A stretch of 64,000 nt of DNA from Pseudomonadales bacterium (GTDB lineage: Bacteria; Pseudomonadota; Gammaproteobacteria; Pseudomonadales; Azotimanducaceae): positions 2,644,112-2,708,111 of the forward strand of contig OY761542.1 of the NCBI GenBank assembly GCA_963664635.1, read 5' to 3'. The notes under the pieces were generated by a model, which did not search any database, was not told the origin of the DNA, and saw nothing but the letters and a program-made list of their open reading frames with translations. Below are positions 10,475-32,230 of the stretch, one piece after another. The position numbers and the translations under genes are program-made. How positions within the stretch are numbered: the stretch's first letter is position 1; every line of letters begins with the position of its first letter.

Positions 10475-10772
10475 GGGTGTCCCCCTCCGGTGTGTGAGGT
10501 GCATGCGTTGTGTGGCGCTGGATCGCGATAGGAGCTTGCGACGTACAAGCGTTTGAAGTAGGACGGTCTGCGTGCCCCTGCAACGGTATGCGCCTCTCGT
10601 TTTCCGATAATATCGTTCATTATCAATCGGATAAGGTCGTTTTCGACGTGCAATAGGGTGCCATCCAGTGTCATTCGACGCCAACGGTTGACGCCCTGCA
10701 TTGTGGGACGCGTTGTAAGCCAATAGCCGCCTGTGTAGAATGGGATTCCGCCCGGAATCCGATGCCCGTCCC

Positions 10773-11963
10773 ATGCCGAAGCTCAATCGCAACGCCCTGT
10801 CCGCCCAAATGGTACGCCACGCCGGTCCCGGCAGCTATGTGGACGGCAACGGCCTCATGCTGCGGGTCCGCGACAGCGGCTCCCGTTCCTGGGTGCAGCG
10901 CATCATGGTCCATGGACGGCGCATCGACATCGGCCTCGGCAACGCGGAGCTGGTGAGCCACGCCGACGCGCGGCGCATCGCGGCCGACAACCGCGCCGTG
11001 GCCCGCACTGGCGGGGATCCGCGCCGTGCGCGGACCATCTCGTTCGCCGAGGCGGAACCGCGGGCGATGGCGGAGAAGGCGGAGACCTGGCGCGGCGGCG
11101 GCGCCGCGAAGTCGGCCCGCGACTGGCGCTCCACGATGGACGCCTACGTACTGCCGCAGTTGGGGACGATGCACGTGGGGGCGGTGGCGACCAGCGACGT
11201 CAAGCGGGTGCTGCGCCCATTGGCGCTGGCGGGCAAGCACGCGACGGCGCGCATGGTGGCGGGCCGCATCGTGGCGGTGCTGGAGTGGGCGGAGGTGGAG
11301 AACCTGCGCGAGCCGGCCGGCAGCGGGCGGGTGATCGTGGAGACGGTGATGCGCTCGCTGCCGAAGGCCGGAGCGGTGCGGCACCACCCGGCGCTGCACT
11401 TCGCCGACGTGGCGGATGCGCTTGCCAGAGTGGACGCGCACCCGCGTATCGCGCGCTGGGTTCAGCTCGCGATCCGGTTCGCGGCGCTGACGGCGGCGCG
11501 GCAGGCGGAGGTACGGCGGGCGACCTGGGAGGAGTTCGACTTCGAGTCCGCGGTGTGGACGGTGCCGGCGGCGCACATGAAGCGCCACCGGCCGCACCGG
11601 GTGCCGCTGTCGACGGGCGCCCTGGTCGTGCTGGCGGAACTGCGCGAGGCGTCCGACGGCGACGCGGTCGTGTTCCGCGGCCCGCACGGTCAGCAGCTCG
11701 GTGCGACCTCGGTGACGAACGCGCTGCGCAAGGCGGAGATCAATGCCACCGGGCACGGTTTCCGTTCGAGTTTCAAGGACTGGGCGCGCCACGAGGGTGT
11801 GGACGAGCTGCTGTCGGAGTTCGCGCTGGCGCACGTCGAGGGCTCGAAGACGGTGGCGGCCTACGCGCGCGACGATCTCCTCGAGAAGCGGCGCCCGGTG
11901 ATGCAGGCGTGGTGCGACCTCATCCTGCGACGAGAGGATCGTCGCGGTCGCGCAAGCGGCTGA
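10773..11963 (+). CDS. tyrosine-type site-specific integrase, P4-like (Arm/DUF4102 N-terminal domain)
   Basis: MPKLNRNALSAQMVRHAGPGSYVDGNGLMLRVRDSGSRSWVQRIMVHGRRIDIGLGN...ADARRIA is the classic arm-binding domain. The C-terminal catalytic region is HGFRSSFKDWARHE...LAHVEGSKTVAAYARDDLLEKRRPVMQAW. Confidence 0.9.
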   Translation: MPKLNRNALSAQMVRHAGPGSYVDGNGLMLRVRDSGSRSWVQRIMVHGRRIDIGLGNAELVSHADARRIAADNRAVARTGGDPRRARTISFAEAEPRAMAEKAETWRGGGAAKSARDWRSTMDAYVLPQLGTMHVGAVATSDVKRVLRPLALAGKHATARMVAGRIVAVLEWAEVENLREPAGSGRVIVETVMRSLPKAGAVRHHPALHFADVADALARVDAHPRIARWVQLAIRFAALTAARQAEVRRATWEEFDFESAVWTVPAAHMKRHRPHRVPLSTGALVVLAELREASDGDAVVFRGPHGQQLGATSVTNALRKAEINATGHGFRSSFKDWARHEGVDELLSEFALAHVEGSKTVAAYARDDLLEKRRPVMQAWCDLILRREDRRGRASG

Positions 11964-12072
11964 ATCCTGGAATGGACGTGGAACCCGACGCCGATCCGCT
12001 GCTCGCCGCGTACCTGCGGAAGGTGCCGGGCATTTCTTGCGTGTTGCCGTCGCGCGGCTGCGTGAGCTGACG

Positions 12073-12255
12073 ACCATGTCGCTGCCGCCGGCAGGGTCGA
12101 CGTTCGTGACGTGGTGGACGGACCCGGAGGGTTGGTCCGCAAGTCCGGCGTCGCGTGCGTGTGAGGCGGCGGGCTGGCGGCTGGAGTCCGTGCAGGTGGC
12201 CGCAGAGCTGGTGCGGTTCATGCGGACAGGGGTGGACGAAGCATCCACGGCTTGA
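12073..12255 (+). CDS. hypothetical small protein (60 aa), weak call
   Basis: ATG at 12073 and GC3-rich codons (MSLPPAGSTFVTWWTDPEGW...). No recognisable motif and no clear SD. Confidence 0.25.
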   Translation, partial: TMSLPPAGSTFVTWWTDPEGWSASPASRACEAAGWRLESVQVAAELVRFMRTGVDEASTA

Positions 12256-12495
12256 CGATGAAGGCCTGCGCGACGCGTTCGCCCGCGCTGGCGACGCCGA
12301 GAGTGGCCTCGTTCGCAACATGGCCCGCGTTTTAGGAAAGCAGGGCACTGTCAAGCGCGATTCGGGGGTCGCTCCGGCCCGGATCGGACCTCGCGGCGGC
12401 CATTGTCGGCCAACGGACGGAGTGGCCGTCGCGACGGTGGCGAGGGCCGGCGCCGGGGATGCGGCGGCCGGCCCGGGCGCGTTGTGGCGTCGCGG

Positions 12496-12924
12496 TCAGC
12501 CGATCTCGAAGGACCGGCGGGTGCGGATGTCGTCGAGGTCCGGCGTACCGTCGAGTTCGGTGCGGGCGTAGACGGCGTACTCGCCGAAGCGGGGCTCGAT
12601 GCGGCGCATGGCGGCGTCGGCGTGGGCTTCGATCTCGTCGCCGTAGGGTCCGAACTCGCAGCCGCCGACGGTCTCGATGTACCAGGCGCGGATCTGCCGC
12701 GGCCACGCTTCCGGCGGCTGGTGCGCGCAGTCCGAGCAGCGCGATTCGCCGGGCATGGCGGCGCGGCGTCCGCAGCGCGTGCAGGCGGCCCTGGCAGCGA
12801 GCCTGGCGTAGCGCTTGCGGGAGTTCGCCGCGGCCTTGTCGAGGCACGGACGACACCTCCGGCGGTCCGGTGCGGCGGGACGGCGGCGGCAGTGGTTGCA
12901 GGTCTGGATGGCAGCGGTGGTCAT
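12496..12924 (-). CDS. Cys-rich (zinc-ribbon-like) hypothetical protein
   Basis: 142 aa from MTTAAIQTCNHCRRR. Repeated CxxC-type pairs (CNHC, CRPC, CTRC, CSDC) are followed by an acidic globular C-terminus. Confidence 0.5.
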   Translation of the reverse strand: MTTAAIQTCNHCRRRPAAPDRRRCRPCLDKAAANSRKRYARLAARAACTRCGRRAAMPGESRCSDCAHQPPEAWPRQIRAWYIETVGGCEFGPYGDEIEAHADAAMRRIEPRFGEYAVYARTELDGTPDLDDIRTRRSFEIG

Positions 12925-13117
12925 GTCGGAACTCCGGCAGTGAAGGAATGCCTGGAGATCGGACGGGCGCGCGCAGGCCGGGCACCCCCAGGGCCGCAAC
13001 GCAGTAGAGGACCGGGCGCAGCCGGGTTGCCGGGGCGAGCACGGCCGTCATGCTGGGTGATTCCCTTCACGGGGAAGGCACAGCGGATGGCGTTCGACTT
13101 GAATGCTGGCGGGCGGT

Positions 13118-13136
13118 TGCAACGCACCACGTTGCA
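13118..13136. promoter_or_regulatory. inverted repeat TGCAACG-N5-CGTTGCA, possible HigA operator
   Basis: Perfect 7-bp inverted repeat lying 15-33 nt upstream of the higB ATG. Confidence 0.35.
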
Positions 13137-13150
13137 GGCGACGATAGGCC

Positions 13151-13426
13151 ATGCGGATCAGGCACAAGGGGCTCCGGGCGCTCGCCGAGCAGGATCGGAC
13201 GAGCCAGGTGCCCACGGAACTGGCCGCGCGGCTGAGGCGCATCCTGACGGCTCTGGGCGAGGCGCGGCGTCCCGGCGACCTCGCCAGCCGCCCCGGCTAC
13301 CGTCTGCATCCGCTGAAGGGCGACATGGCTGGACTGTGGAGCATCAGCGTATCGGGCAACTGGCGCGTGGTGTTCCGGTTCGAGGACAGCGAGGTGGTCG
13401 ACGTGGACCTGGTGGACTACCACTGA
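13151..13426 (+). CDS. higB: type II toxin HigB (plasmid maintenance system killer, RelE/ParE superfamily)
   Basis: KGLRAL...RLRRILTAL...PGYRLHPLKGDMAGLWSISVSGNWRVVFRFEDSEVVDVDLVDYH, a near-textbook HigB pattern. Confidence 0.93.
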   Translation: MRIRHKGLRALAEQDRTSQVPTELAARLRRILTALGEARRPGDLASRPGYRLHPLKGDMAGLWSISVSGNWRVVFRFEDSEVVDVDLVDYH

Positions 13427-13444
13427 GACGAGGAGGAGACGACG

Positions 13445-13702
13445 ATGGCGATGCTGAACCCCTGCCACCCGGGAGAGACCCTGCGCGACGATCTGGCGGC
13501 GGCGGGGTTGACGGTGACGGACACGGCGGCGCGGCTAGGCTGCACACGGCAGGCGCTGTCGCGGCTGCTGAACGGCAAGGCGGGGATCTCGCCGGCCATG
13601 GCCATCGCGCTGGAGCGGATGGGGTGGAGCAACGCGGCCTACTGGATGCGGTTGCAGGCGGCCTACGACCTGGCCCAGGAGCGGCGCCGGCAGGCGGCCT
13701 GA
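13445..13702 (+). CDS. higA: HigA antitoxin (XRE-type HTH)
   Basis: HPGETLRDDL...GLTVTDTAARLGCTRQALSRLLNGKAGISPAMAIALERMG.SNAAYWMRLQAAYDL. Toxin-first gene order, typical of HigBA. Confidence 0.93.
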   Translation: MAMLNPCHPGETLRDDLAAAGLTVTDTAARLGCTRQALSRLLNGKAGISPAMAIALERMGWSNAAYWMRLQAAYDLAQERRRQAA

Positions 13703-13706
13703 ACAC

Positions 13707-13979
13707 ATGACGGCCGACGACTTCCGAGCCGAACTGGCCAGCCTGTTCGAGGCGGCGGCGAACGTCGGGCGCGGCACGATCGTGGTGCGCGCGGGAGACC
13801 TGCACCGGGGGGTGGGCGGCTACCCGGGGACGAACCACCGGATGCCGATGTGCTGCGGCGTGATGTACGCCGAAATGGTCGAAGGGGTCGACGAGCTTCT
13901 GTCGGCGCCGCCGAGCGGCCAGGGCGCGTCGGTGGCGATCGAGTACCTGCTGCCGCGGCCCGGGGCGAACGACGACTGA
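13707..13979 (+). CDS. hypothetical protein co-transcribed with higBA
   Basis: 90-aa ORF starting 4 nt after the higA stop. Conserved-looking core GDLHRGVGGYPGTNHRMPMCCGVMY. Family not recognised with confidence. Confidence 0.55.
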   Translation: MTADDFRAELASLFEAAANVGRGTIVVRAGDLHRGVGGYPGTNHRMPMCCGVMYAEMVEGVDELLSAPPSGQGASVAIEYLLPRPGANDD

Positions 13980-14034
13980 GCCGCTGCGATGGCTGGCCCG
14001 CGTTGGGGCTCAGGCGTGGCAGCCCGACGGTCGG

Positions 14035-14982
14035 CTACGAGCAGTAAGTCAAGGTTATGTCCGGGCGCAGGTGTCCCATTTCCTCGGCGACGATCGCGAG
14101 CGCGAGGTGGTGCTCCGCGTGATGCATCAGTTCCCGCATCCTTGATTGGGCGTACTGGTAGCGCAGCCCATGGGCGCCCTTGCTCTTCCCCAGCGCCGCC
14201 ATGCTGGCGCGCGAGAACGACACGCTGAAGGCGTGTCCGCCGCCGACATCGTAGCGTAGCCGGTAGCGGACGCCGCGGTCGACGACGGGCACCGGGACGT
14301 CCAGCCGCCGTTCCTCGAGGCGTTCCGCCAGACCGCGCGGCAATAGCACCTCCCGGACCAGCCCGCCCTTGCCGACAACGGTGTAGATCACGCCGTTGCG
14401 GCCGGCGAACTTCATGCCCTCGGCGGCGGTGCCCGTGAGGTGCGACCGGTCGCGCCGGTCGTCGGGCGGCTGTTCGGCGGGGCGGCCCAGAGTGAGCAGC
14501 TCGTGGGCCCGGATCCCCGAGGCGTGGGCGATCTCGGTGGCGAGCGCGTTGCGGGGATCCTGCCGGGCGGCGACGGCGCGGACCTGGGCCGGGGAGTAGG
14601 CGCGCGGCCTGGGACGGTGCGGTTCCGTGGACTTCACCACCGGCAGCGTGGCGCCCGGCGGCAGTTGGCCGGTGACGCCGACCATCATCGCCTGGATCGC
14701 CTGCCGCTCCATGTCCAGGGTTTTCTGAGCCACTTCGCCAGCCCGGCCCTTCAGGTAGGCGACGGCGCGCTCGGGCGTCAGCGCGGTCAGCGCCACATCC
14801 AGCCGCGCGGCGATCTGCACCAGCCGCTCCTGGTAGTTCCTCCCGGTGCCGACCGACCGGATGCGCGCGCCCTGCAGGCGCTTGACGACGCCGGCGGCCT
14901 GCTTCTTCGGATCGCTGGGCTTCGAGCGGAACCGGTGGCGCGGCTGGTCGTGGCCGCGGCGGACGCGGCTACGCCTGGCCAT
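14035..14982 (-). CDS. tyrosine recombinase / phage integrase-family protein
   Basis: 315 aa from MARRSRVRRG. ASGIRAHELLTL (catalytic Arg box), HGLRYQYAQSRM and MGHLRPDITLTYC (His..Tyr box). The 5' extension in ORF 14035..15111 was rejected. Confidence 0.8.
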   Translation of the reverse strand: MARRSRVRRGHDQPRHRFRSKPSDPKKQAAGVVKRLQGARIRSVGTGRNYQERLVQIAARLDVALTALTPERAVAYLKGRAGEVAQKTLDMERQAIQAMMVGVTGQLPPGATLPVVKSTEPHRPRPRAYSPAQVRAVAARQDPRNALATEIAHASGIRAHELLTLGRPAEQPPDDRRDRSHLTGTAAEGMKFAGRNGVIYTVVGKGGLVREVLLPRGLAERLEERRLDVPVPVVDRGVRYRLRYDVGGGHAFSVSFSRASMAALGKSKGAHGLRYQYAQSRMRELMHHAEHHLALAIVAEEMGHLRPDITLTYCS

Positions 14983-15385
14983 TGGCGTGCTTCCGCAGCC
15001 AGCGGGAAACGGTGGAGCGGTCCACCCGCAGCCCGTGCTCGTCGCGCAGCGTCCGGTGGCACTCGCCGATGGTGGCGCCCTGGGCGCGCAGTCTGAGCAC
15101 GTGGTAACCATGCTCGTCGATGCTTGAGACGGTCAGGCGCGGAAAGCGCAGCTCCCGGTCGCGGGCCCGGAGTTCGTCGAGGGCGGCGGCGGCATCGAAG
15201 CCGAGGGCGGGATTGACGCGGAGCGTATCCACCTTGGCGAGCCAGCGCCCGGCGGTCGTCGCCGCGACGACGGTGTCGCGCTCGAAGCGCAGCCAGCGGG
15301 TCAACTGGGCGAGCGTGGCCCCGGCCCGCCGCAGGGCGAGCAGTTCGGCTGCGTGGCGGTCGAGCGTCGACCGGCGCTGTCCCAT
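14969..15385 (-). CDS. helix-turn-helix DNA-binding protein (two HTH modules), partner of the recombinase
   Basis: 138 aa. GATLAQLTRWL and GATIGECHRTLRDEHGLRVDRSTVSRWLRK resemble Hin/resolvase-type HTHs. The 3' end overlaps the recombinase start by 14 nt. Confidence 0.6.
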   Translation of the reverse strand: MGQRRSTLDRHAAELLALRRAGATLAQLTRWLRFERDTVVAATTAGRWLAKVDTLRVNPALGFDAAAALDELRARDRELRFPRLTVSSIDEHGYHVLRLRAQGATIGECHRTLRDEHGLRVDRSTVSRWLRKHANGQA

Positions 15386-16243
15386 GTGCGTACCTCCGAG
15401 CGCACGACCTGTGTGGTGATCCGTAGCCGTTAGAACTATTGCCGCGTTCCAACGCTTCTCTCGAAACGTCCGGATCGACGCGGCTCAGCGGGATCGGAAG
15501 CGCCGTGGCGTTCCTCTCCCGACTCGCCCACGTTCAGTCCTTGATGGACTCGGCCGGGACCGTTCTCGCCGTTGCAGGTGGTTGTCGCGCTGTGTAGCCG
15601 CGCGGGATGCCCTGCCGCATCCCGTCCATGTCGCGTTCGTCACGGTTGCGCACGGACGCCTGAAGCGCCGATGGATCGCATCGGTTGCTTGCTGCTATGG
15701 GCTTGTGGCCCAAACGGTGTGTTGCCGGGACCGCCCGGCTCGACTTCGCGGGCGTGACCCGCCGGAGGCGTGGGTGGCCTCCTGCCGCACTGTCGCAGGA
15801 TCGCTGCGTTGCCCTTGCGGGCCGGGAGCCGTGCGGTCGCCCCGTGGTAGCTGCCTTCGGTCGGCACGTCCCGTGGCCAGCGGGGAATCAGGTATGGCCA
15901 GTCGGCGTTGCGCTGGCCGGAGGGTCGCTCCAGGTCACGCTTTGCGCGGATGTCGCCGCGCCGGAGGCCGCCGTCGCCCCCGGTACGCTTCGTGTCACAT
16001 GGCACTTGCTGCGTCTTCACGCGCCGGAGCCGCGTACGGGTGCCCCGGTTCAGGCGTCGGTGCGCCGCTTCTCTGGTGTGGCTAGGACCGGTCGGTCCAA
16101 CGTCGCCGCTCCGGTCGGAGCTGGCGGGTAGTGGCGGAGATTATGGGCGACGCCGGGTAATGCGCGCAAATGTGTGCGTGAACGGTTGGAGAGCGCGCAC
16201 GAGTCGTCCTGAACTTGGAGCGGCCGGGCCAGAGCGGCGTGCT

Positions 16244-16289
16244 GCGCGTCAATCAAGATGAGAACGGCTTCTCATCCTGATTGACGCGC
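16244..16289. repeat. long hairpin / inverted repeat (21-bp arms, 4-nt loop)
   Basis: GCGCGTCAATCAAGATGAGAA-cggc-TTCTCATCCTGATTGACGCGC. There is one A/C mismatch on the + strand, which becomes a G-U wobble on the minus strand. No U-tract follows on either strand. Confidence 0.85.
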
Positions 16290-16403
16290 TACAGCGGCGA
16301 GCGGCTGGACGACGAGGGGGGACCCCAATGGCTACGAGACATCTGCGCTGGGCCGTCGACGCAGTGTCGTCAAGCCCAATCGGTCGCTCGTCACGCGTGG
16401 GGG

Positions 16404-16431
16404 TTGACACTGCGGCAGGACGTGTAGTGTC
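16404..16431 (+). promoter_or_regulatory. possible promoter/operator of the 4-gene operon
   Basis: TTGACA (16404-16409), N15, TAGTGT (16425-16430). It overlaps a 6-bp inverted repeat GACACT...AGTGTC. It lies about 35 nt upstream of the first operon ORF. The spacing is suboptimal. Confidence 0.3.
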
Positions 16432-16467
16432 ATTACTTCACGGAAAGATAGTTGGAGAACCACTGTG

Positions 16468-16662
16468 ATGACCGATGAAGAGAAGAGCGCCTTGACGCTC
16501 ACTGTGTTGCTGACCCTTGCTGTCGAAGGCATCAGGGTGGCCTTTAGTTTCGTGGATCGCAGCTTGGCGCACTGGCAGGGCCGCAAAGAAGAGGAACGGC
16601 GGCGCGCTGCGAGACAAGCGCGTGCCGACAAGGAACCTGAGGGAGAGAGCTATGTCCTCTGA
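16468..16662 (+). CDS. small hypothetical protein with one hydrophobic helix
   Basis: MTDEEKSALTLTVLLTLAVEGIRVAFSFV followed by a charged tail. GGAG lies 10 nt upstream of the ATG (an in-frame GTG at 16465 is also possible). It overlaps the next gene by 11 nt. Confidence 0.35.
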   Translation: MTDEEKSALTLTVLLTLAVEGIRVAFSFVDRSLAHWQGRKEEERRRAARQARADKEPEGESYVL

Positions 16663-17005
16663 CAATCCGTACGGGCCAGGCCGGGCCAAGCGTTGGGTGA
16701 AAGGCGGCACGAGGCTCCCGCCAGGAACGGCCGGAGAGTACCGGATCGTGAAAAAGGAGACGGGCAAGCCACACTACATCGGGGAGTCCGGAGACCTCGA
16801 GCGCCGACTGAATCAGCATACGCGTATGGGGAAGGCTGGGACCACGGACAAGAGCCACCTGTACGACGCGAGCAAGCACGAGATCACCTATCAGGTGGCG
16901 AAAGCCGGTGCATCGACCGAGGCCCGGCGAGAGCACGAGAGGAGGAAGATCGCTGAGCATGCCCCCTCCTGGAATCTGGACCGCGGGGGGAGCGGAAGGA
17001 GATGA
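16652..17005 (+). CDS. GIY-YIG domain nuclease (stand-alone, 117 aa)
   Basis: GEYRIVKKETGKPHYIGESGDLERRLNQHTR gives the GIY and YIG elements and the catalytic Arg. Downstream are EARREHERRKIAEH (Glu) and ..SWN. Start at ATG 16652 after GGGAGAGAG. Confidence 0.75.
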   Translation: MSSDNPYGPGRAKRWVKGGTRLPPGTAGEYRIVKKETGKPHYIGESGDLERRLNQHTRMGKAGTTDKSHLYDASKHEITYQVAKAGASTEARREHERRKIAEHAPSWNLDRGGSGRR

Positions 17006-18096
17006 AGACACACGACGCTCAAGGTCGGCCTGTGCTGACGTTGATTCGGGGTGGGAGACCGCTGGGTGTACAAGATCCGTCTCAAACTCATCTGGCGTCA
17101 GGTCAGGGGAGAAGTGGTCGCGCGAGTGCACGGGACAATGGGCCCCAATTGATGCCAACCGAGGACAATCGCATGTCAGAGAAAAGCAAACTTCCAGAGA
17201 GGATCGCCGGGATGGCCTTCGGCACAAACGACCGCCAGAGCATCCAACGCGTGGGCGAGCTCCATAGGGTCTCCGAGTCGCACGTCGTGCGAAGCTGCGT
17301 GGGCATCGGGCTCCTGGTGTATTCGGACATTCGTCTGCGGTCTAGGATCGCGACGGCCGCCAAGGACCATGCGACAAGTGAGCGCGCCGTGATTCAAGCG
17401 GCGGTTCGGCGGGGGTTGGAACGTGCCCGGTTTGGCACGCGCCCGAGTGTGGAGCGCCTGGACAAGGGCGCTGAGGGAGAGCAGCGGCCTAAGGGCAAGT
17501 ATCCGAAGCGAATCGCGGGGCTGGCCTTCAGCGTGGACGACTATGAAGCCGTTCGACGGATCAGGGCGAGCCGTGAAGTTTCCGAGGCGCAGGTTGTGCG
17601 AGAGTGCAGTTCGATTGGCTTGGCGATCTATGTGGACGATGAGTTGCGGAGTCGGATCGAAGATGCGGCCTTCCGGCACGGGAGGCGCGAGCGGGACATC
17701 GTCTACAGCGCCATGCAACAAGGGCTGGAGGAGGCCCTTGTCTGGCTTCGGCTGGCTCCGGTATTGCGAATCAGGGACGGACTACGGGCTGAGGATCCAG
17801 GACTTGATTTGAAGCTGACCGAGTACATTCATGCCGTTGGGAGACGAGTCCAGCCGGTGGGTCTCCCGGATCCGCTTTTCGCTGATGAGAGGGATCGAGG
17901 TTGGACGGAATCATCCTTGGAACTGCAAGGCCTCCATGAAACGTTGAGCGAGAGCCCTCTGGACGAGCATGATCGGCTGTTGGCCAGCTACCTCGACGGA
18001 CGTAGTGCTGAGGCGAAGGAGCAAGCTCGGCGATCGTTTGAAGCCCGCCGGTCCGAACTGCTTGAGCTTCGGGGGCTAGGGGACGAGGAAGTGTGA
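17002..18096 (+). CDS. hypothetical protein with two tandem ribbon-helix-helix-like modules and an acidic helical C-terminal region
   Basis: Internal duplication: ERIAGMAFGTNDRQSIQRVGELHRVSESHVVRSCVGIGLLVYSDIRLRSRIATAAKDHATSERAVIQAAVRRGLE versus KRIAGLAFSVDDYEAVRRIRASREVSEAQVVRECSSIGLAIYVDDELRSRIEDAAFRHGRRERDIVYSAMQQGLE. ATGA overlap with the GIY-YIG gene. Confidence 0.6.
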   Translation: MKTHDAQGRPVLTLIRGGRPLGVQDPSQTHLASGQGRSGRASARDNGPQLMPTEDNRMSEKSKLPERIAGMAFGTNDRQSIQRVGELHRVSESHVVRSCVGIGLLVYSDIRLRSRIATAAKDHATSERAVIQAAVRRGLERARFGTRPSVERLDKGAEGEQRPKGKYPKRIAGLAFSVDDYEAVRRIRASREVSEAQVVRECSSIGLAIYVDDELRSRIEDAAFRHGRRERDIVYSAMQQGLEEALVWLRLAPVLRIRDGLRAEDPGLDLKLTEYIHAVGRRVQPVGLPDPLFADERDRGWTESSLELQGLHETLSESPLDEHDRLLASYLDGRSAEAKEQARRSFEARRSELLELRGLGDEEV

Positions 18097-18121
18097 CGGC
18101 TAGGCGTCCGCAAAGGATCAG

Positions 18122-18814
18122 ATGACGGCGATACTTGACCACATTGGGCGCTTGTACGGTTGTTTCGACGCTGGGGACTTCGAGCGCTACGTAGTGCGCG
18201 ACATCTTGCAGGGCGACGACCTCAAGGTCGTGCTTGTGTTCGAGTCGCCCCACCGTGACGAGTTGAAGGACACCAACCCTCAGCGTCTCCCAGCGGTTGG
18301 AGCTACTGGGCGATCCGTGACGAAACTGCTCGATGGGTTGGTCCACCAGACCGGTTCGATGCGTCCACCGATACGAACTGAGCCAATAGGGCGACTGTGT
18401 GGACGACGGGACAACGGATTCGGATGGCTTGGCCTCATGAGTGCCTGTCAGATCCCGCTCCAGAAGAAAGCGTACGACGGCAATGCGGAGTTGCAGCGCA
18501 GCTATGGAAGTCTCTTGGCGGATTTGCAGACTTTCAAGGACGCACTGGATGGCGATGAGGACGCCGACGTCATTGGAGGCGATTTGGGACAAGCGATAGC
18601 GGCTGTTCTTGCGGAGCGGCTGGGACCAGTTCAGCAGCGCAGGCTGCTACTTGTACCCTGCGGCAGGGTCGCACGAGCCCTATGTGGGGCGGCAGGCGTT
18701 CATGTTGATAGCAGGTTGCCCCGAGTTCCACATCCTTTGGCACCGGATGCTTGGGGGCATGCGCCGGCGCTCGTGGAGATGGCGAGGGTGATCCGAAGTG
18801 TGCTTGAGGACTAG
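18122..18814 (+). CDS. divergent uracil-DNA-glycosylase-superfamily (UDG-fold)-like protein
   Basis: By-eye alignment to family-4 UDG motifs. VVLVFESPHRDE...PAVGATGRSVTKLL corresponds to lmlVGEgPGeeEd..PFVGkAGqLL. LMSACQIPL corresponds to NivkCrPP. LLLVPCGRVA corresponds to ivplGavA. PRVPHPLAP corresponds to HPa/s. This is inference only. Confidence 0.55.
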   Translation: MTAILDHIGRLYGCFDAGDFERYVVRDILQGDDLKVVLVFESPHRDELKDTNPQRLPAVGATGRSVTKLLDGLVHQTGSMRPPIRTEPIGRLCGRRDNGFGWLGLMSACQIPLQKKAYDGNAELQRSYGSLLADLQTFKDALDGDEDADVIGGDLGQAIAAVLAERLGPVQQRRLLLVPCGRVARALCGAAGVHVDSRLPRVPHPLAPDAWGHAPALVEMARVIRSVLED

Positions 18815-19739
18815 CTCTGGTGCGCCTCACGGTGGACAACGGTCCCGGCTATCAGCCCCGCACGTTCAGCACTCTCGAGCGCGTTTCGGGGCCGGATCGG
18901 GCTCCGGATGGGCCATTTTCGGACAACGGGCCGCGTGGCCGCGGCGGCGACCAGGCCGAAGATCGGGCGCTGCATGAGCAGGATCGGGCACGGCACAGCG
19001 GCAAGCCGGTCGGCCTGGCGGGGGACAAGCGGTCGGCGATGAGTTAGAAATTTCTCGCATCCGACCGATGCTTGTCGGTCGGTCGGCGCTGAGCGGAATC
19101 GCGGGTACCAATCCGGTCATCCTGTTCGCACCCTGTTTCGTCCTTGCGGACGGCGCCGGCACTGTTCTCGCGCTGTTCCTTTGGTCAGTGGAACGTCTGC
19201 GACGCGTTGCGCGTCATCCCGTATTGTTCAGCCGTCGCTGCGCATCGGGGCGTCTCGCTGGGTTACCCGCAGTCTGCCTGATGCGCGCTCCGGTTGTGTC
19301 AGCCGGGATGTTGCTGGAACGGTCGCCACTGGCGACTGCGCCCGTTGGTTCAGCTAGGGTCGTGCTGGGGTCCACGCGGTGGACCCTTCCCGATGATTTT
19401 GCATGGTGGGGAAGCCATGTCCGGGTCACAGATCCCGGCGTCTGTATGCTTGGTGCGGATCGTAGACGCTCCCCGGACCCAGGGCAAGCGGCGTTTGCGG
19501 GTGTGCGTGGCGCATGTTAGTCGCCATCTGTGCGCGAATCTTGGCACAGCCAGCCCCCACGCTGGAACCGGTCCAGACGCGCGCTCGGACACGGTGCGCG
19601 ACTGCGCCGGCGGCGGGCTTCGGCGGCGCCCCGTCGTTCAGGCGCTGGCACAACAAGGCACACGCCGCGGACGCACAAGGTGGCGATCAGGTGCGCGGCG
19701 GGGCTGCACGCGAGATCGTGCGCGGTTCGGCGGAAACCC

Positions 19740-19792
19740 CGCCCCGACGCCGTGGGACGCGACAGTCAGGTCCGTCCCACAGCGTCGGGGCG
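19740..19792. repeat. long hairpin (19-bp stem, 15-nt loop) in a gene-free stretch
   Basis: CGCCCCGACGCCGTGGGAC ... GTCCCACAGCGTCGGGGCG. There is a single C/A mismatch on the + strand (G-U on the minus strand). Confidence 0.8.
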
Positions 19793-19979
19793 CGCAGAGA
19801 CGCGGGAAGCGGACCGGACGCGCACCCGGACACGGCGCGGAACATCGCGGCGGGGACGCCGCCGGTGCGCCAACAATCGGTACAATGTCGCCTCTCGGAG
19901 AACGAAAGCGCTAGCAGCCTCGCGCGGGATGGCGAAGCCCGCGCCCCGTAAACGAAAGAGATGACCGTCAGGAGGGCAT

Positions 19980-20531
19980 ATGGGACAGTCCCCGATGCGC
20001 GAGAAGCTCGCTGAAGCACGGTACTTCCGGGCCGGGATGGATCGGAACGCAAACGACCTGACCCCCTTCAAATGTGAGCTGAGCGCGTTTCTGACGGCGG
20101 CGCGGACGGTGTTGCAGTACCTTCGGGATGAGTGCGGCAACGCGGGACGCCAAGGGTGGTATGACAACAAGATGGCCGATCAGATGTTCCGGTTTATGGG
20201 ATGCCAAAGGAACGTGAACATCCACGAGCGCCCCATAGAGCCTAGGCAGAACGTGACCTCGACAGTCGAGGAGCGAGTAGTTCTCAGGGATAGCTTCTCG
20301 ATCACGACGACCGATGAACACGGGAACGTCGTTCAGCACGAGGAGATCGAAACGACACTGCCAGAGGCGGTGCCGACCGAGATCGAACGAACGGTCGAGT
20401 ACCGGTTCGCTGACTGGACCGGCCAAGAAGATGTTCCCGCGCTGTGCGACAAATACGTGGGTGCGCTTGAGTCCATCCTTGATGCATGGGACCAGGTGCA
20501 GACTGGCGTAGCAGGCACGAAGGGCACTTAG
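19980..20531 (+). CDS. hypothetical protein with HEPN-like Rx4H motif
   Basis: 183 aa with SD GGAGGG 5 nt upstream. Helical N-terminal half (REKLAEARYF...ELSAFLTAARTVLQYLRDE) ends in QRNVNIHE, the R-N-x-x-x-H signature of HEPN RNases. Confidence 0.55.
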   Translation: MGQSPMREKLAEARYFRAGMDRNANDLTPFKCELSAFLTAARTVLQYLRDECGNAGRQGWYDNKMADQMFRFMGCQRNVNIHERPIEPRQNVTSTVEERVVLRDSFSITTTDEHGNVVQHEEIETTLPEAVPTEIERTVEYRFADWTGQEDVPALCDKYVGALESILDAWDQVQTGVAGTKGT

Positions 20532-20683
20532 CGGGGCGTGGCGCGACCGCGGGACCGTGGCAACCTTGCCGCGGGGGAGGGCTACTTGGCTCTGCTAGGG
20601 GTGGCGGACCGCGCGAGGGTTCTGCGGCATACGTAGTCTGCCCTTCGGCCTAGGCGTCGGCGGCATCCAAGTTTGAAGGGTCT

Positions 20684-21652
20684 ATGTTCGGGAGTGGAAG
20701 GATGGGCGACGATCGGGCGGAGGAACACTTGGTCTGGTGTCCATACACCGACAAGGAGATCCGGTTGGCCGACACCACACCAGAGCACGTGGTCCCGCTT
20801 TCGCTCGGTGGCGTTAGCGAGTTTTGCGTACGTACGGAGAAAAAGGCGAATTCGGATATTGGGTCGAAAATCGACGCACCCTTGGCGGATGAGTTCCTCG
20901 TGAAACAGCGCCGGAACCGGCTCGGCATGGTCGGGCACAGCGGGAACCACCCGGTTGTGACGTGGAAGAGTTCGGAGCTTGACTCTGGCGAGCCGGTGCA
21001 GGTGACGCTCGACCGGGGGGACGTACGAATCTGGTCGCCGGTGCGGAAGCAGTACATCGCTGTGGGAAGCGACGTGCAAATCCGCTCGAAGTGGACCATG
21101 TATGTGGACACGCCCCTTCGTTTCGCGGCCAAGGTCGCGCTGTCGGCCGGGTACTTCGTGTACGGAGATCTCTTCCGGCGCGCCGTGGCGCATGACGAGG
21201 TTCGTTTCATTATGGAGTTCGACCTACGCGGTGTGACGCCCGGCGAAAGAGCCGAACTCGAAAGACGTGCGTCGACGATGGGGGTTCAAGCAGAGGACTG
21301 GCTGCGGAGAGACGATAATCCAGATTTGGAAGTGTTCCGGTTGTTGTCTCAGGCGTACGGAAGTTCGTCCATCGCGGGCCTGATCCCTACCAAGAGCTCG
21401 CTGACCGTATTCGTCGGCGTTCTCGGGATGTACGTAGGGCTCGTTGACGCGCCGGCAGACACCACTGAGTTTCCTCTTGGTGGAACGCACGATCTGGGGC
21501 ATGTCGTGGCGCTGCGGGACGGCAAGATCGAACGACAGTCGCTAAGGGACGCGGCGCGAATGCTCGACGGAATGCTGAAGAACGGTTGGCGACCGGAGTA
21601 TGGAGAACCATCCCGTGGCGCCGGCGGTGACGCCGGAGTCAACAGTGACTAG
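20684..21652 (+). CDS. HNH endonuclease domain protein with an uncharacterised ~250-aa C-terminal domain
   Basis: N-terminal CPYTDKEIRLADTTPEHVVPLSLGG....KKANSDIG is an HNH (HNH_5-like) core. An alternative start at ATG 20702 has GGAG 7 nt upstream. Confidence 0.75.
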   Translation: MFGSGRMGDDRAEEHLVWCPYTDKEIRLADTTPEHVVPLSLGGVSEFCVRTEKKANSDIGSKIDAPLADEFLVKQRRNRLGMVGHSGNHPVVTWKSSELDSGEPVQVTLDRGDVRIWSPVRKQYIAVGSDVQIRSKWTMYVDTPLRFAAKVALSAGYFVYGDLFRRAVAHDEVRFIMEFDLRGVTPGERAELERRASTMGVQAEDWLRRDDNPDLEVFRLLSQAYGSSSIAGLIPTKSSLTVFVGVLGMYVGLVDAPADTTEFPLGGTHDLGHVVALRDGKIERQSLRDAARMLDGMLKNGWRPEYGEPSRGAGGDAGVNSD

Positions 21653-22026
21653 GACGAGCCTCCCGTGACTCGCTGTGTCCGGACTGACGATTCACGGCTG
21701 GGGCGGTCGTTGTTGTCGAAGCGTAGGACCGCGTCGAGGACGACGAGCTGTCCGGAGGCGACCTAGTGGCCCTGGCGGACGATCCGGCGTGCTGTGACGG
21801 TCGCTACAGTAGCCTGGTTCGATACTTCGTCTGCGTTTTCGAAAACCATGGCACTGTGGAGCGCGATACGGGGGCCGCATGCGGCCCGGATCGGGCCTCG
21901 ATGATGCGGCACGCCGCACCAAGGCCGCGATGCGGCGGCCCACCGCTGCTCGCCCGCTCCCGTAGCTCAGCGTGCCGTCGGCTGCCGTAGCGTCAAGGGG
22001 AACGCGCCCGGCGTCAGCCGGGCGCC

Positions 22027-22170
22027 CTAGCCCGCATTTCTCACCAGGCCGCTAGTCGGCGTCAAAAGGCTCTTGGGTTTCAAGTAGTTGACTACGATGC
22101 CAAGTGATCGCGCCAAGTACGGACTGCGCTGGCCGCGCCCTCGCGGCCCCTGGTGAGAAATGCGGGCTAG
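22027..22170. repeat. perfect 22-bp inverted repeat pair flanking a 100-bp spacer
   Basis: CTAGCCCGCATTTCTCACCAGG at 22027-22048 and its exact reverse complement at 22149-22170. Confidence 0.9.
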
Positions 22171-22230
22171 CGGCCCTTGACCCGACGCCGGCGGGAGGCG
22201 GCAGGAAGTGCATAGACGAGAGGCGGAGAG

Positions 22231-22267
22231 GTCAAGGCGTCAAGGCGCTCAAGGCGTCTCAAAGGGC
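22231..22267. repeat. iteron-like tandem array of TCAAGGC motifs
   Basis: GTCAAGGC GTCAAGGC GCTCAAGGC GTCTCAAAGGGC. Related single copies lie at 21992 (GTCAAGG), 22061 (GTCAAAAGG), 22175 (inverted, CCTTGAC) and 22310 (GTCAAGA). Confidence 0.8.
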
Positions 22268-22373
22268 GGCGCTGGTGCGCGGCTTGGGAAGGTGTCGCGT
22301 TGTTGGCTGGTCAAGATGAAAATCTCGTAACCCAATGATTTAACATTGTTTTACGAGAGTTACACGCTGCCGA

Positions 22374-22422
22374 CGTAGGAGTTTCGCGCAGCGAAACTCC
22401 CAACGCGACCGTCAGGTCGCGC
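22374..22422 (-). repeat. REP-like double-hairpin element, copy A (abuts the stop codon of the NHL gene)
   Basis: The reverse complement reads TAGCGCGACCTGACGGTCGCGTTGGGAGTTTCGCTGCGCGAAACTCCTACG. It is nearly identical to copy B at 32036-32089. Confidence 0.9.
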
Positions 22423-23459
22423 TACCGCGGTTCCAGGACGCGTACGCGGTGGTTGTCGCTGTCGCCCACGAACAGACGCCCGTCGGCGGCGGCGAAGATG
22501 CCGTGCGGCCGTGCGAGCCCGCATCGCAGCGGGTCGCCGTCCGGGCCGTCGTGGCGCGTCCCGTCGCCGATCACCGTCGTGATGATGCCGCTTGCGCGGT
22601 CGATGCGGCGGACGGTATGGCTTTCCGTGTCCGCGATGTAGACGGCGGCGCGCGTCACCGAGATGCCCTTGGGGCCGGCGAGGTCCGCCGCCTTCGCATC
22701 GCCGCCGTCGCCCCGGTACCCGCCCCGACCGGTGCCCGCCACGTGGTGCAGCGTGCGGCGGGCCATGTCGATCCGGTACACGGCGTTGCCTTCGCGCAGG
22801 GTCAGGTAGAGGTCTCCGCGTGCGTCGAAGGCCAGCGTGCGCGGGCCGTGGAGCGGGGTGCGCGCGACGTCGGCGCCGTCCGCCGCGGGCGCGGGTTCGC
22901 CGGTGCCGGCGAAGGTCTCGACGAGTCCGGTCGCGGGATCGATCCGCCGGATCCGGTGGTTGCCGATGTCGGCGACGAACACGGCTCCGTCGGGGCCGAT
23001 CTCGACGCTGTGCGGCTGCCGGAACGTGGCTTGGGTGGCGGGGCCGCCGTCGCCGGAGAAACCCGGCTCGCCGGTACCCGCGATCGTGTCGATGCGCCCG
23101 TCGGGGGTCACGCGGCGGACGACGTGGCTCGGCATGTCGACGAAGTAGAGGTTGCCGGCACGGTCGAACCGGATCTCGTAGGGTTCGCGGATGTCCGCCT
23201 CGAGGGCCGGGGCCCCGTCGCCGGAGTGGCCCGATTCACCGGTGCCGACGATGGTTGCCAAGCGGCGGGACCGCAGGTCGACGCGGCGGATGCGGTGATT
23301 GCCGAGGTCGCAGAAGCAGAGACGCCCCTCGGGGTCGACCACGACGCCGAAGGGCTCGGCGATCGCGGTGTCCGGGTCGACCGCGCCGTCGGACGCGCGG
23401 CCGCGGGTCCCGGTACCGACCACGGTGGTCACGGATGCGGGAGCGTGCATGGCGGCCAA
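22422..23459 (-). CDS. NHL-repeat beta-propeller protein
   Basis: Six repeats of the type P.GV.VD..G.L.F.D.GNHRIRR.D...G...T.AGTG..G.SGDGG.A. Confidence 0.85.
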   Translation of the reverse strand: MAAMHAPASVTTVVGTGTRGRASDGAVDPDTAIAEPFGVVVDPEGRLCFCDLGNHRIRRVDLRSRRLATIVGTGESGHSGDGAPALEADIREPYEIRFDRAGNLYFVDMPSHVVRRVTPDGRIDTIAGTGEPGFSGDGGPATQATFRQPHSVEIGPDGAVFVADIGNHRIRRIDPATGLVETFAGTGEPAPAADGADVARTPLHGPRTLAFDARGDLYLTLREGNAVYRIDMARRTLHHVAGTGRGGYRGDGGDAKAADLAGPKGISVTRAAVYIADTESHTVRRIDRASGIITTVIGDGTRHDGPDGDPLRCGLARPHGIFAAADGRLFVGDSDNHRVRVLEPR

Positions 23460-31138: not shown

Positions 31139-32038
31139 GTGGAAGCTACCGACGATCCGTTCGCCTGGGTCTGCATCCGGCATCACCGCGACGCCCGGCA
31201 GGTCAACGACGCCGCCCTGGTCCTGACCGCGGTCGGCATCGACAACTTCACGGAACGCATCCCGGAAGAGGGCGAATGGGGGCTGTTCATCCGGCGGGGC
31301 AACGCCACGGTGGCCGCGGACCAGCTCGAGCGCTACCGCGTGGAGAACCTGCCCCCCAGGATCCGCATCCCCCCGATCATCACCTTCGACAGCGGCTGGG
31401 CGGGCGTGCTCGGTTACCTGTGCATCCTGTGGGCGCTGCCGGCCCTCGAGGCCTGGGACTGGTTCGGGATGGACTGGCGCGGCGCGGGGCGCATGGAGGC
31501 GGCGCTCGTCCGGGACGGCGAGTGGTGGCGGACGATCACGGCGCTCACGCTGCACGGCGACTTGGCGCACATCCTCGGGAACTCGCTGTTCGGGGCGGTC
31601 TTCGGGCTCATGGCCGGGCGCTATCTCGGATCGGGCCTGTGCTGGCTGCTCGTGTTGCTCGCCGGCGCCGCCGGAAACGGCGTGAACGCGTGGCTGCGGC
31701 CGGACGGCTTCGCCTCCCTCGGCGCATCGACCGCGACGTTCGCCTGCGTGGGACTCACCTCCGCGTTCATCTGGCGCCGCGGCTACTTCCGCGGCCGCGG
31801 CTGGCGGCGCGGCTTCGCGCCGATCGTGGCCGGACTGGCGATGCTCGCCTTCACGGGCATGGGCGGGGCGAACACCGACGTCCTTGCGCACGTCGCCGGC
31901 TTCGCATGCGGAGTGGGCGCCGGCGTCCTCATCGCGCCGTTCGACATCCGCCGGCTCGGGCGCTCGGGGCAGCACCTCGCGGGCGCCGTCGCGGCGGTGC
32001 TGATTGCGCTTGCGTGGGTGTTTGCAGGTGAGCCCTAG
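31139..32038 (+). CDS. rhomboid-family intramembrane serine protease
   Basis: WWRTITALTLHGDLAHILGN, GASTATFACVG (catalytic Ser) and AHVAGFACGVGAG (catalytic His). N-terminal cytoplasmic domain. GTG start is uncertain. Confidence 0.8.
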   Translation: MEATDDPFAWVCIRHHRDARQVNDAALVLTAVGIDNFTERIPEEGEWGLFIRRGNATVAADQLERYRVENLPPRIRIPPIITFDSGWAGVLGYLCILWALPALEAWDWFGMDWRGAGRMEAALVRDGEWWRTITALTLHGDLAHILGNSLFGAVFGLMAGRYLGSGLCWLLVLLAGAAGNGVNAWLRPDGFASLGASTATFACVGLTSAFIWRRGYFRGRGWRRGFAPIVAGLAMLAFTGMGGANTDVLAHVAGFACGVGAGVLIAPFDIRRLGRSGQHLAGAVAAVLIALAWVFAGEP

Positions 32039-32089
32039 CGCGACCTGACGGTCGCGTTGGAAGTTTCGCTGTGGCGCGAAACTTCTACG
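32036..32089 (+). repeat. REP-like double-hairpin element, copy B (abuts the stop codon of the rhomboid gene)
   Basis: TAGCGCGACCTGACGGTCGCGTTGGAAGTTTCGCTGTGGCGCGAAACTTCTACG. The first 25 nt, including the TAG, are identical to copy A. The second stem carries a compensated A-T versus G-C change. Confidence 0.9.
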
Positions 32090-32230
32090 GCGCGAGCTCC
32101 TGGAATCTCTCCGTTCGGACGAGCAAGCCCGCCCTACCGGGTCACTGCCGGTCCCCGGGCGGGGCAGCGCACGTAGCGTTCCGTGCTACGGTAACGGCGC
32201 GGGTGGTCGCCGGGCTGACGGAGACGCGGC

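Follow-up and report, generated by a model that had tools for sequence, protein, structure and literature searches.

Within the 64-kb window that makes up the whole stretch of DNA analyzed here, two genes were found to end in copies of the same structured repeat. The NHL-repeat gene (22422-23459, minus strand; 345-aa product) ends in copy A, which on the minus strand reads TAG-CGCGACC-TGAC-GGTCGCG-TTG-GGAGTTTCGC-TGC-GCGAAACTCC-TACGTCG. The TAG stop codon of this gene (22422-22424) serves as the head of the copy and is followed, on the same strand, by hairpin 1 (22404-22421, the CGCGACC-TGAC-GGTCGCG portion); hairpin 2 (22378-22400), which is headed by GTAG on the opposite strand; and the heptamer TACGTCG (22371-22377), an attR-side core at which the head part of copy A is joined to an inserted island. 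Copy B is whole (32036-32103, plus strand), beginning at the TAG (32036-32038) of a rhomboid-family gene and continuing through hairpin 1 (32039-32056), hairpin 2 (32059-32085), and TACGGCG (32086-32092) into the tail CGAGCTCCTGG. The two copies share 25 identical nt, TAG included, and their common 23-mer had exactly two matches in the window compared with 0.02 expected by chance. They differ in stem 2, where GGAG..CTCC of copy A is replaced by GAAG..CTTC in copy B, and in the loop of that stem (TGC versus TGTGGC). The original prediction of a double hairpin fused to both stop codons, with 25 identical nt, a compensated change in the second stem, and an altered loop, was confirmed in each of these respects.

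When copy A was folded as RNA, two hairpins were predicted (−32.5 kcal/mol, z = −4.2). No terminator-like site and no U-tract were found, the stems being followed by TACGKCGCAAGC; an intrinsic terminator was therefore rejected for these GC-rich hairpins, and the earlier description of the element as REP-like was borne out. A search of Rfam with positions 10000-34500 of the window at E ≤ 1 returned no family. Two features of the prediction had to be revised: the unit is not about 50 nt in length but about 63 nt, since it runs on as TACG(T/G)CG-CAAGCTCCTAG, and it is not core sequence, as relatives were found to be without the repeat at both loci.

A census of the single-contig genome (G000; 5.39 Mb, 68.6% GC) was performed by BLAST, a hairpin regular expression, and two nhmmer profiles. 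The nhmmer scan of the whole genome placed the family at about 100 copies (100 at E ≤ 0.01 and 65 at E ≤ 1e-10), most of which lie at ordinary conserved gene ends. The order of the unit was found to be (N)TAG, hairpin 1, TTG or a third hairpin, hairpin 2, and TACG(T/G)CG-CAAGCTCC-T(A/G)G. Two forms were distinguished: (i) a short form of about 63 nt, with TTG between hairpins 1 and 2; and (ii) a long form of about 85 nt, with a third hairpin, GCCCATCC-N4-GGATGGGT, in place of the TTG. The family is also present in several congeners, and tandem arrays with a period of 61-64 nt, in which the units share the TAG, were seen in this genome and in congeners G012 and G033. The suggestion that the structure is selected, made from the two copies of the window, was supported by double changes across the family. 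Among 31 short-form copies the 17 base pairs of the stems were 98.5% paired and 5 of them were changed on both sides, with G-C, A-U, and C-G all occurring at one stem position; none of 500 shuffles reached the observed level of covariation, and sliding the register reduced pairing to 31-52%. The opposite strand of hairpin 2 reads CGTAG-GAGTTTCGC in most copies, and the head of hairpin 1 was NTAG in 38 of 77 copies, with G in only a minority. A co-oriented gene was located upstream in 56 of 85 copies, and just 5 of the 85 were positioned between divergent genes.

With a conserved palindrome, an unpaired GTAG end, and a high extragenic copy number, together with the BIME hallmarks of different REPs in alternating orientation, conserved linkers, and frequent tandem arrangement, the element is a member of a dispersed non-coding family of the GTAG-type REP/BIME class. 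Other classes were examined and rejected. The repeat is not a REPIN, as hairpins 1 and 2 are unrelated in sequence and fold separately, nor is it a MITE, as its ends (TAGCGCG... and ...CTCCTRG) are not inverted repeats and no consistent duplication was detected, the 5′ and 3′ flanks being unmatched within a copy. Other REP-like families were observed in the genome, namely GTAG-GGGACGGGCTCGTCCC, GGGCGACCC-N-GGGTCGCCC, and CAGTTCGGCTGCGCCGAACTG (at genome positions 99796, 1519420, 4066062, 4588986, and 5352474, among others). These form mosaics with hairpin 1 of the family studied here, and several of them also begin at TAG stops, 22-24 nt upstream of hairpin 1.

The position of the repeat relative to stop codons was examined with gene ends from a crude GC3-based gene call, in which only credible genes were considered. 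The head was fused to the stop codon of a credible gene (offset 0 or +1) in 22 of the 77 copies with a complete head, whereas only 1 of 38 tails was used in this way. The 22 fused gene ends were then compared with the orthologous ends in the congeners G011, G014, and G001, the relatives used throughout being uncultured Pseudomonadales/Candidatus Azotimanducaceae MAGs. Where the orthologous site was without the repeat, TAG was present at the aligned codon in 38 of 52 comparisons (p = 3e-11). TAG accounts for about 28% of the stops genome-wide (1053 of 3720), which is in itself high for a gammaproteobacterium of 68.6% GC. At 20 of 21 sites, one or more of the relatives without the repeat had TAG at the corresponding position, including the copy B site, where the rhomboid gene of G014 ends in TAG at the same codon with no repeat. 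The sole exception was the copy A site, where the aligned codon of the relatives is TGA or TAA. As repeat-less orthologues carry the TAG, the trinucleotide is a pre-existing insertion target rather than a donation of the repeat, and the apparent fusion to genes arises because a pre-existing TAG in a GC-rich genome is usually a stop codon. Judged by these sequence comparisons, the repeat is shown to arrive immediately 3′ of an existing TAG. The alternative, in which the repeat was recurrently and exactly lost with retention of the TAG, would need similarly exact chemistry and is less parsimonious, since at most sites none of the three relatives has the repeat. Other REP families in this genome appear to behave alike, as perfect hairpins of at least 7 bp directly following the stop codon were detected at 111 of 1053 TAG stops compared with 20 of 2400 TGA and 2 of 267 TAA stops. 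The termini of GTAG REPs have been reported to coincide with TAG stops and often to supply the TAG to the flanking ORF (PMC3733652). Whereas the TAG is described there as provided by the repeat, the empty sites identified here indicate that the TAG came first and sharpen this older statement.

Y1 transposases of the IS200/IS605 type typically insert DNA 3′ of a short, fixed target, and insertion 3′ of an existing TAG is what would be expected of single-strand transposition of this kind. No RAYT gene flanked by the studied repeat was found in the genome or in 21 congeners, in which only weak Y1_Tnp matches without repeat flanks were detected. Thus, no REPtron, defined by a cognate RAYT flanked by its own REPs, was recognized for the family; REPtrons can be absent according to the literature. 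A lone RAYT-like ORF (genome 3212352-3212915; locus L001, 1267-1830) scored 25 bits for Y1_Tnp and 36 bits for NF047646 against a cut-off of 80, and has HAH and Y motifs; no copies of the studied repeat flank it, and similar ORFs were identified in 8 of the 21 congeners. The repeat may spread as a hairpin-forming single strand that would be acted on in trans by a Y1 (RAYT-like) transposase.

Copy A was found to be split, as an island of 11,825 bp (10546-22370) lies between hairpin 2 and the tail, with TACGTCG duplicated at the flanks. The attL-side heptamer (10539-10545, minus strand) adjoins the displaced tail of the copy, CAAGCTCCTAT (10528-10538, minus strand), at a distance of 11.8 kb from the head part. 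The island consists of an integrase, a shared 1.2-kb module, a variable cargo that in this case is of nuclease and defense type, and a conserved right arm. The integrase gene (10740-11963, plus strand) is the first in the island, with its start 195 bp from the attL junction, and encodes a P4-type tyrosine integrase with Arm-DNA-bind_3, Phage_int_M, and Phage_integrase domains. The right arm (about 135 bp, 22237-22370) is conserved in all three islands described below and contains repeats of GTCAAGGC, which are candidate arm-type integrase sites. Comparison of empty and occupied sites revealed that the copy A site is free of the island in relatives: at the NHL locus of G002, G006, G011, G013, and G014, the next gene of the operon lies about 25 nt away, with no repeat or island. 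An arm-binding integrase near one end, att direct repeats, and an empty site together identify the insertion as a P4-type integrase island. The integration was not into the 3′ end of a tRNA or tmRNA gene, the target being the linker of the repeat, and a tRNA search of positions 8000-35000 of the window detected none. Metagenome scans for the NHL-repeat junction and, as a pattern, for the predicted attP each gave 0 matches, neither a circular excision product nor a restored attB was seen, and an exact-protein look-up of the neighboring gene found nothing on record.

Two further observations were made in the region of the copy A island. About 50 nt (10475-10527) separate the repeat tail from the next gene of the operon (MIYEERR...), which exceeds the entire intergenic spacer found in the relatives by about 20 nt, and therefore extra sequence accompanied the insertion of the repeat. 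The conserved 1.2-kb module common to all three islands (14035-15385, minus strand) contains a 358-aa ORF with no Pfam match but a recombinase-like C-terminus (HGLRYQY...Y), together with a small HTH protein, and could be an excisionase/regulator pair or a second recombinase.

The family was then examined for other interrupted copies. In five copies, the tail CAAGCTCCTAG was found to be replaced after TACG(T/G)CG by GGCAG(C/T)G and then by AT-rich sequence, and the genome encodes two intact paralogues of the integrase (97.5% and 90.7% identical) as well as several further ones that are partly decayed. Three intact islands of identical architecture were identified, ...hairpin 2-TACGKCG/GGCAGCG...island...CAAACGCTTG/TACGKCG-CAAGCTCC (where the slash represents the junction), of 11.8 kb (I1, at copy A), 18.2 kb (I2), and 14.6 kb (I3). 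All three share the integrase module, the 1.2-kb module, and the 135-bp right arm with its GTCAAGGC repeats, while the cargo differs; the nucleotide of insertion and the orientation are the same for each. I1 and I3 have TACGTCG as their heptamer and I2 has TACGGCG, in each case fitting the local subtype of the repeat. Remnants of islands were detected at genome positions 5198595, 2228232, and 903630-906719. The host copies are of different variants (short with GGAG and loop TGC; long with GAAG and the third hairpin; short with loop TGAT), so the repeat preceded the islands rather than arriving with them. At the loci of I2 and I3, neither island nor repeat was present in five relatives. Of the exact linkers in the genome, 16 are intact and 4 occupied, such that about a fifth of the usable pads are filled; 32 and 34 intact linker sites were counted in the congeners G012 and G033, respectively. 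The same relationship was observed beyond this genome: OZ220680.1, from another species, has the repeat family, with some copies intact; three of its tails adjoin the island arm seen here, and a further one adjoins another element at the identical nucleotide. A tail junction as in the islands was also found in OY760226.1.

Read from these junctions, the 3′ linker of the repeat is shown to be the chromosomal attachment site of P4-type integrase islands of 12-18 kb, with copy A an occupied and copy B an unoccupied site. The islands would be integrated by conservative site-specific recombination, with TACGKCG as the presumed overlap region. As the identity between island and target is only 7 bp and the core variants do not track the relatedness of the integrases, a tolerance of mismatches must be assumed. 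Overall, we consider it highly probable that a REP family which inserts 3′ of TAG provides, in its linker, the attachment site of these islands.

Three other explanations were weighed. The one that survives best, though we regard it as unlikely, is that the element is a selected cis-regulatory 3′-UTR RNA, a stabilizer of the mRNA or a brake on translation of the NHL-repeat and rhomboid genes, and that the link to islands is incidental. The stable, compensated hairpins that begin at the stop codon and the bias of orientation toward the sense of the upstream gene are in keeping with such a function, yet about 100 copies follow unrelated genes, tandem arrays and a presence or absence that varies by lineage typify a repeat that is spreading, and island junctions that recur with nucleotide precision are not incidental. 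An effect on RNA is nonetheless compatible with the attachment-site reading as a secondary consequence. REPs of E. coli that lie fewer than 16 nt away from a stop have been found to down-regulate translation (PMC12306157). By analogy, and as part of the favored reading rather than of this rival, the two GC-rich hairpins placed 0-1 nt after the stop would, if transcribed, hinder terminating ribosomes, which would have to melt them, and may also shield the 3′ end of the mRNA by blocking 3′ exonucleases.

Less probable still, and in our view quite improbable, is the arrival of the islands by Tn-like transposition with a target-site duplication of 6-7 bp in place of recombination by the integrase. 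The duplicated heptamer does track the local variant of the repeat (TACGTCG for I1 and I3, TACGGCG for I2), as would a target duplication, and the identity of the island ends with the target is very short. However, no transposase was recognized and the island ends are not inverted repeats of each other, while every copy has, about 195 bp from one junction, a P4-type integrase that includes an arm-binding domain, as well as a right arm with repeated motifs typical of arm sites, and a constant insertion nucleotide and orientation. That the repeat halves are borne by the island, as its terminus and not as a prior target, would fit the relatives that are without both island and repeat at all three loci, but it is scarcely credible in view of three islands that lie in different variants and yet have integrase modules 90-95% identical in DNA, at least 16 intact unoccupied copies in the genome, and the lineage specificity that nearly all tested copies display anyway.

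Whether the repeat marks the borders of variable regions was considered in light of copy B. The downstream neighbors of this copy are an ATPase (AAA_21) and DUF4276 pair. In G014 the ATPase/DUF4276 cassette directly follows the rhomboid gene with no repeat, and other relatives have different DNA at the locus. Since G014 has the cassette without the repeat, the association of the two at copy B is coincidental, and copy B, which is itself intact, was rejected as an island border; variability of the region has causes of its own, and the repeat came to the TAG later, as an independent event. The proposal of a preferred integration target in the original prediction thus holds for copy A, through the TACGKCG linker, the three intact islands, and the second species, but not for copy B. 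Its companion, a general boundary element, was not sustained, as the roughly 100 copies are lineage-specific and most lie at ordinary conserved gene ends. Nearly all tested copies are lineage-specific insertions, and the family is not a generic boundary of core sequence.

The repeat resembles the REP/BIME elements of E. coli and the SMAG elements of Stenotrophomonas (Di Nocera et al. 2013, PMC3733652) in (i) its GC-rich stem-loops with a (G)TAG head; (ii) its two opposed and different REPs, conserved linkers, and tandem arrays; and (iii) the location of copies downstream of genes with their heads on TAG stops. It differs from these in that no REP-flanked RAYT was found and in the NTAG head of hairpin 1, in which the G is not fixed. 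The overlap of REPs and stop codons is already known biology. An abundant intergenic repeat that acts as a multi-copy attachment site is also known, from dRS3 and the filamentous prophage Nf1/MDA island of Neisseria (PMC3898611). There the repeat is the 20-bp dRS3 and the cargo a phage, whereas here a GTAG REP, a P4-type tyrosine integrase, and a variable island are involved. The recombinase of Nf1/MDA is Piv/IS110-like. Insertion sequences that target REPs include IS1397/ISKpn1, ISPpu9/10, and IS621 (IS110 family), as cited in PMC3733652 and PMC10849738. These likewise use REPs as safe, repeated landing sites for mobile DNA, but are transposase or bridge-RNA elements of 1-2 kb, unlike the present islands of 12-18 kb, whose tyrosine integrase is heterobivalent and whose 7-bp core lies in the linker rather than in a hairpin loop. 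P4/CP4-57-type islands of tRNA and tmRNA genes share the architecture of the integrase, its position at a junction, the short direct repeats at the ends, and the variable cargo; in contrast to these, no tRNA is involved here and attB lies in a repeat with at least 16 usable copies per genome, which accounts for several related islands in one chromosome. In the part of the literature covered, no report was found of P4-type islands with a REP/BIME linker as multi-copy attB, and this use of a REP linker by integrase islands appears to be undescribed.

We hold as evenly balanced the broader proposal of a two-tier nested system, in which a RAYT-less REP seeds itself 3′ of TAG and its copies become landing pads for islands with defense cargo. 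If true, one chromosome could collect related islands at gene ends on harmless pads, leaving its tRNA sites unspent. Many integrase islands are annotated with neither a tRNA nor a recognizable att, and a dispersed REP linker can be such an att. A REP-linker att explains the coexistence of three related islands and offers a simple sequence rule for island borders in this clade.

Variation in target use was also observed. At one locus (L152; G034:C1:3672892-3672906), the end of a different element (…GGTTGCAGCCGGTTG) adjoins the tail of the repeat at the same TACGGCG nucleotide, and may represent a second island type that shares the same attB. Other close relatives of the integrase have a different junction, ...CATGGA/ATAAGC. 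At six loci (L018, L024, L026, L027, L035, and L054), all in other MAGs, integrases 84-88% identical to that of the window were found with the left junction ...CATGGA/ATAAGCATTTGAAGTAG. This junction appears to coincide with the start codons of varied genes, suggesting that members of a single integrase family have switched targets.
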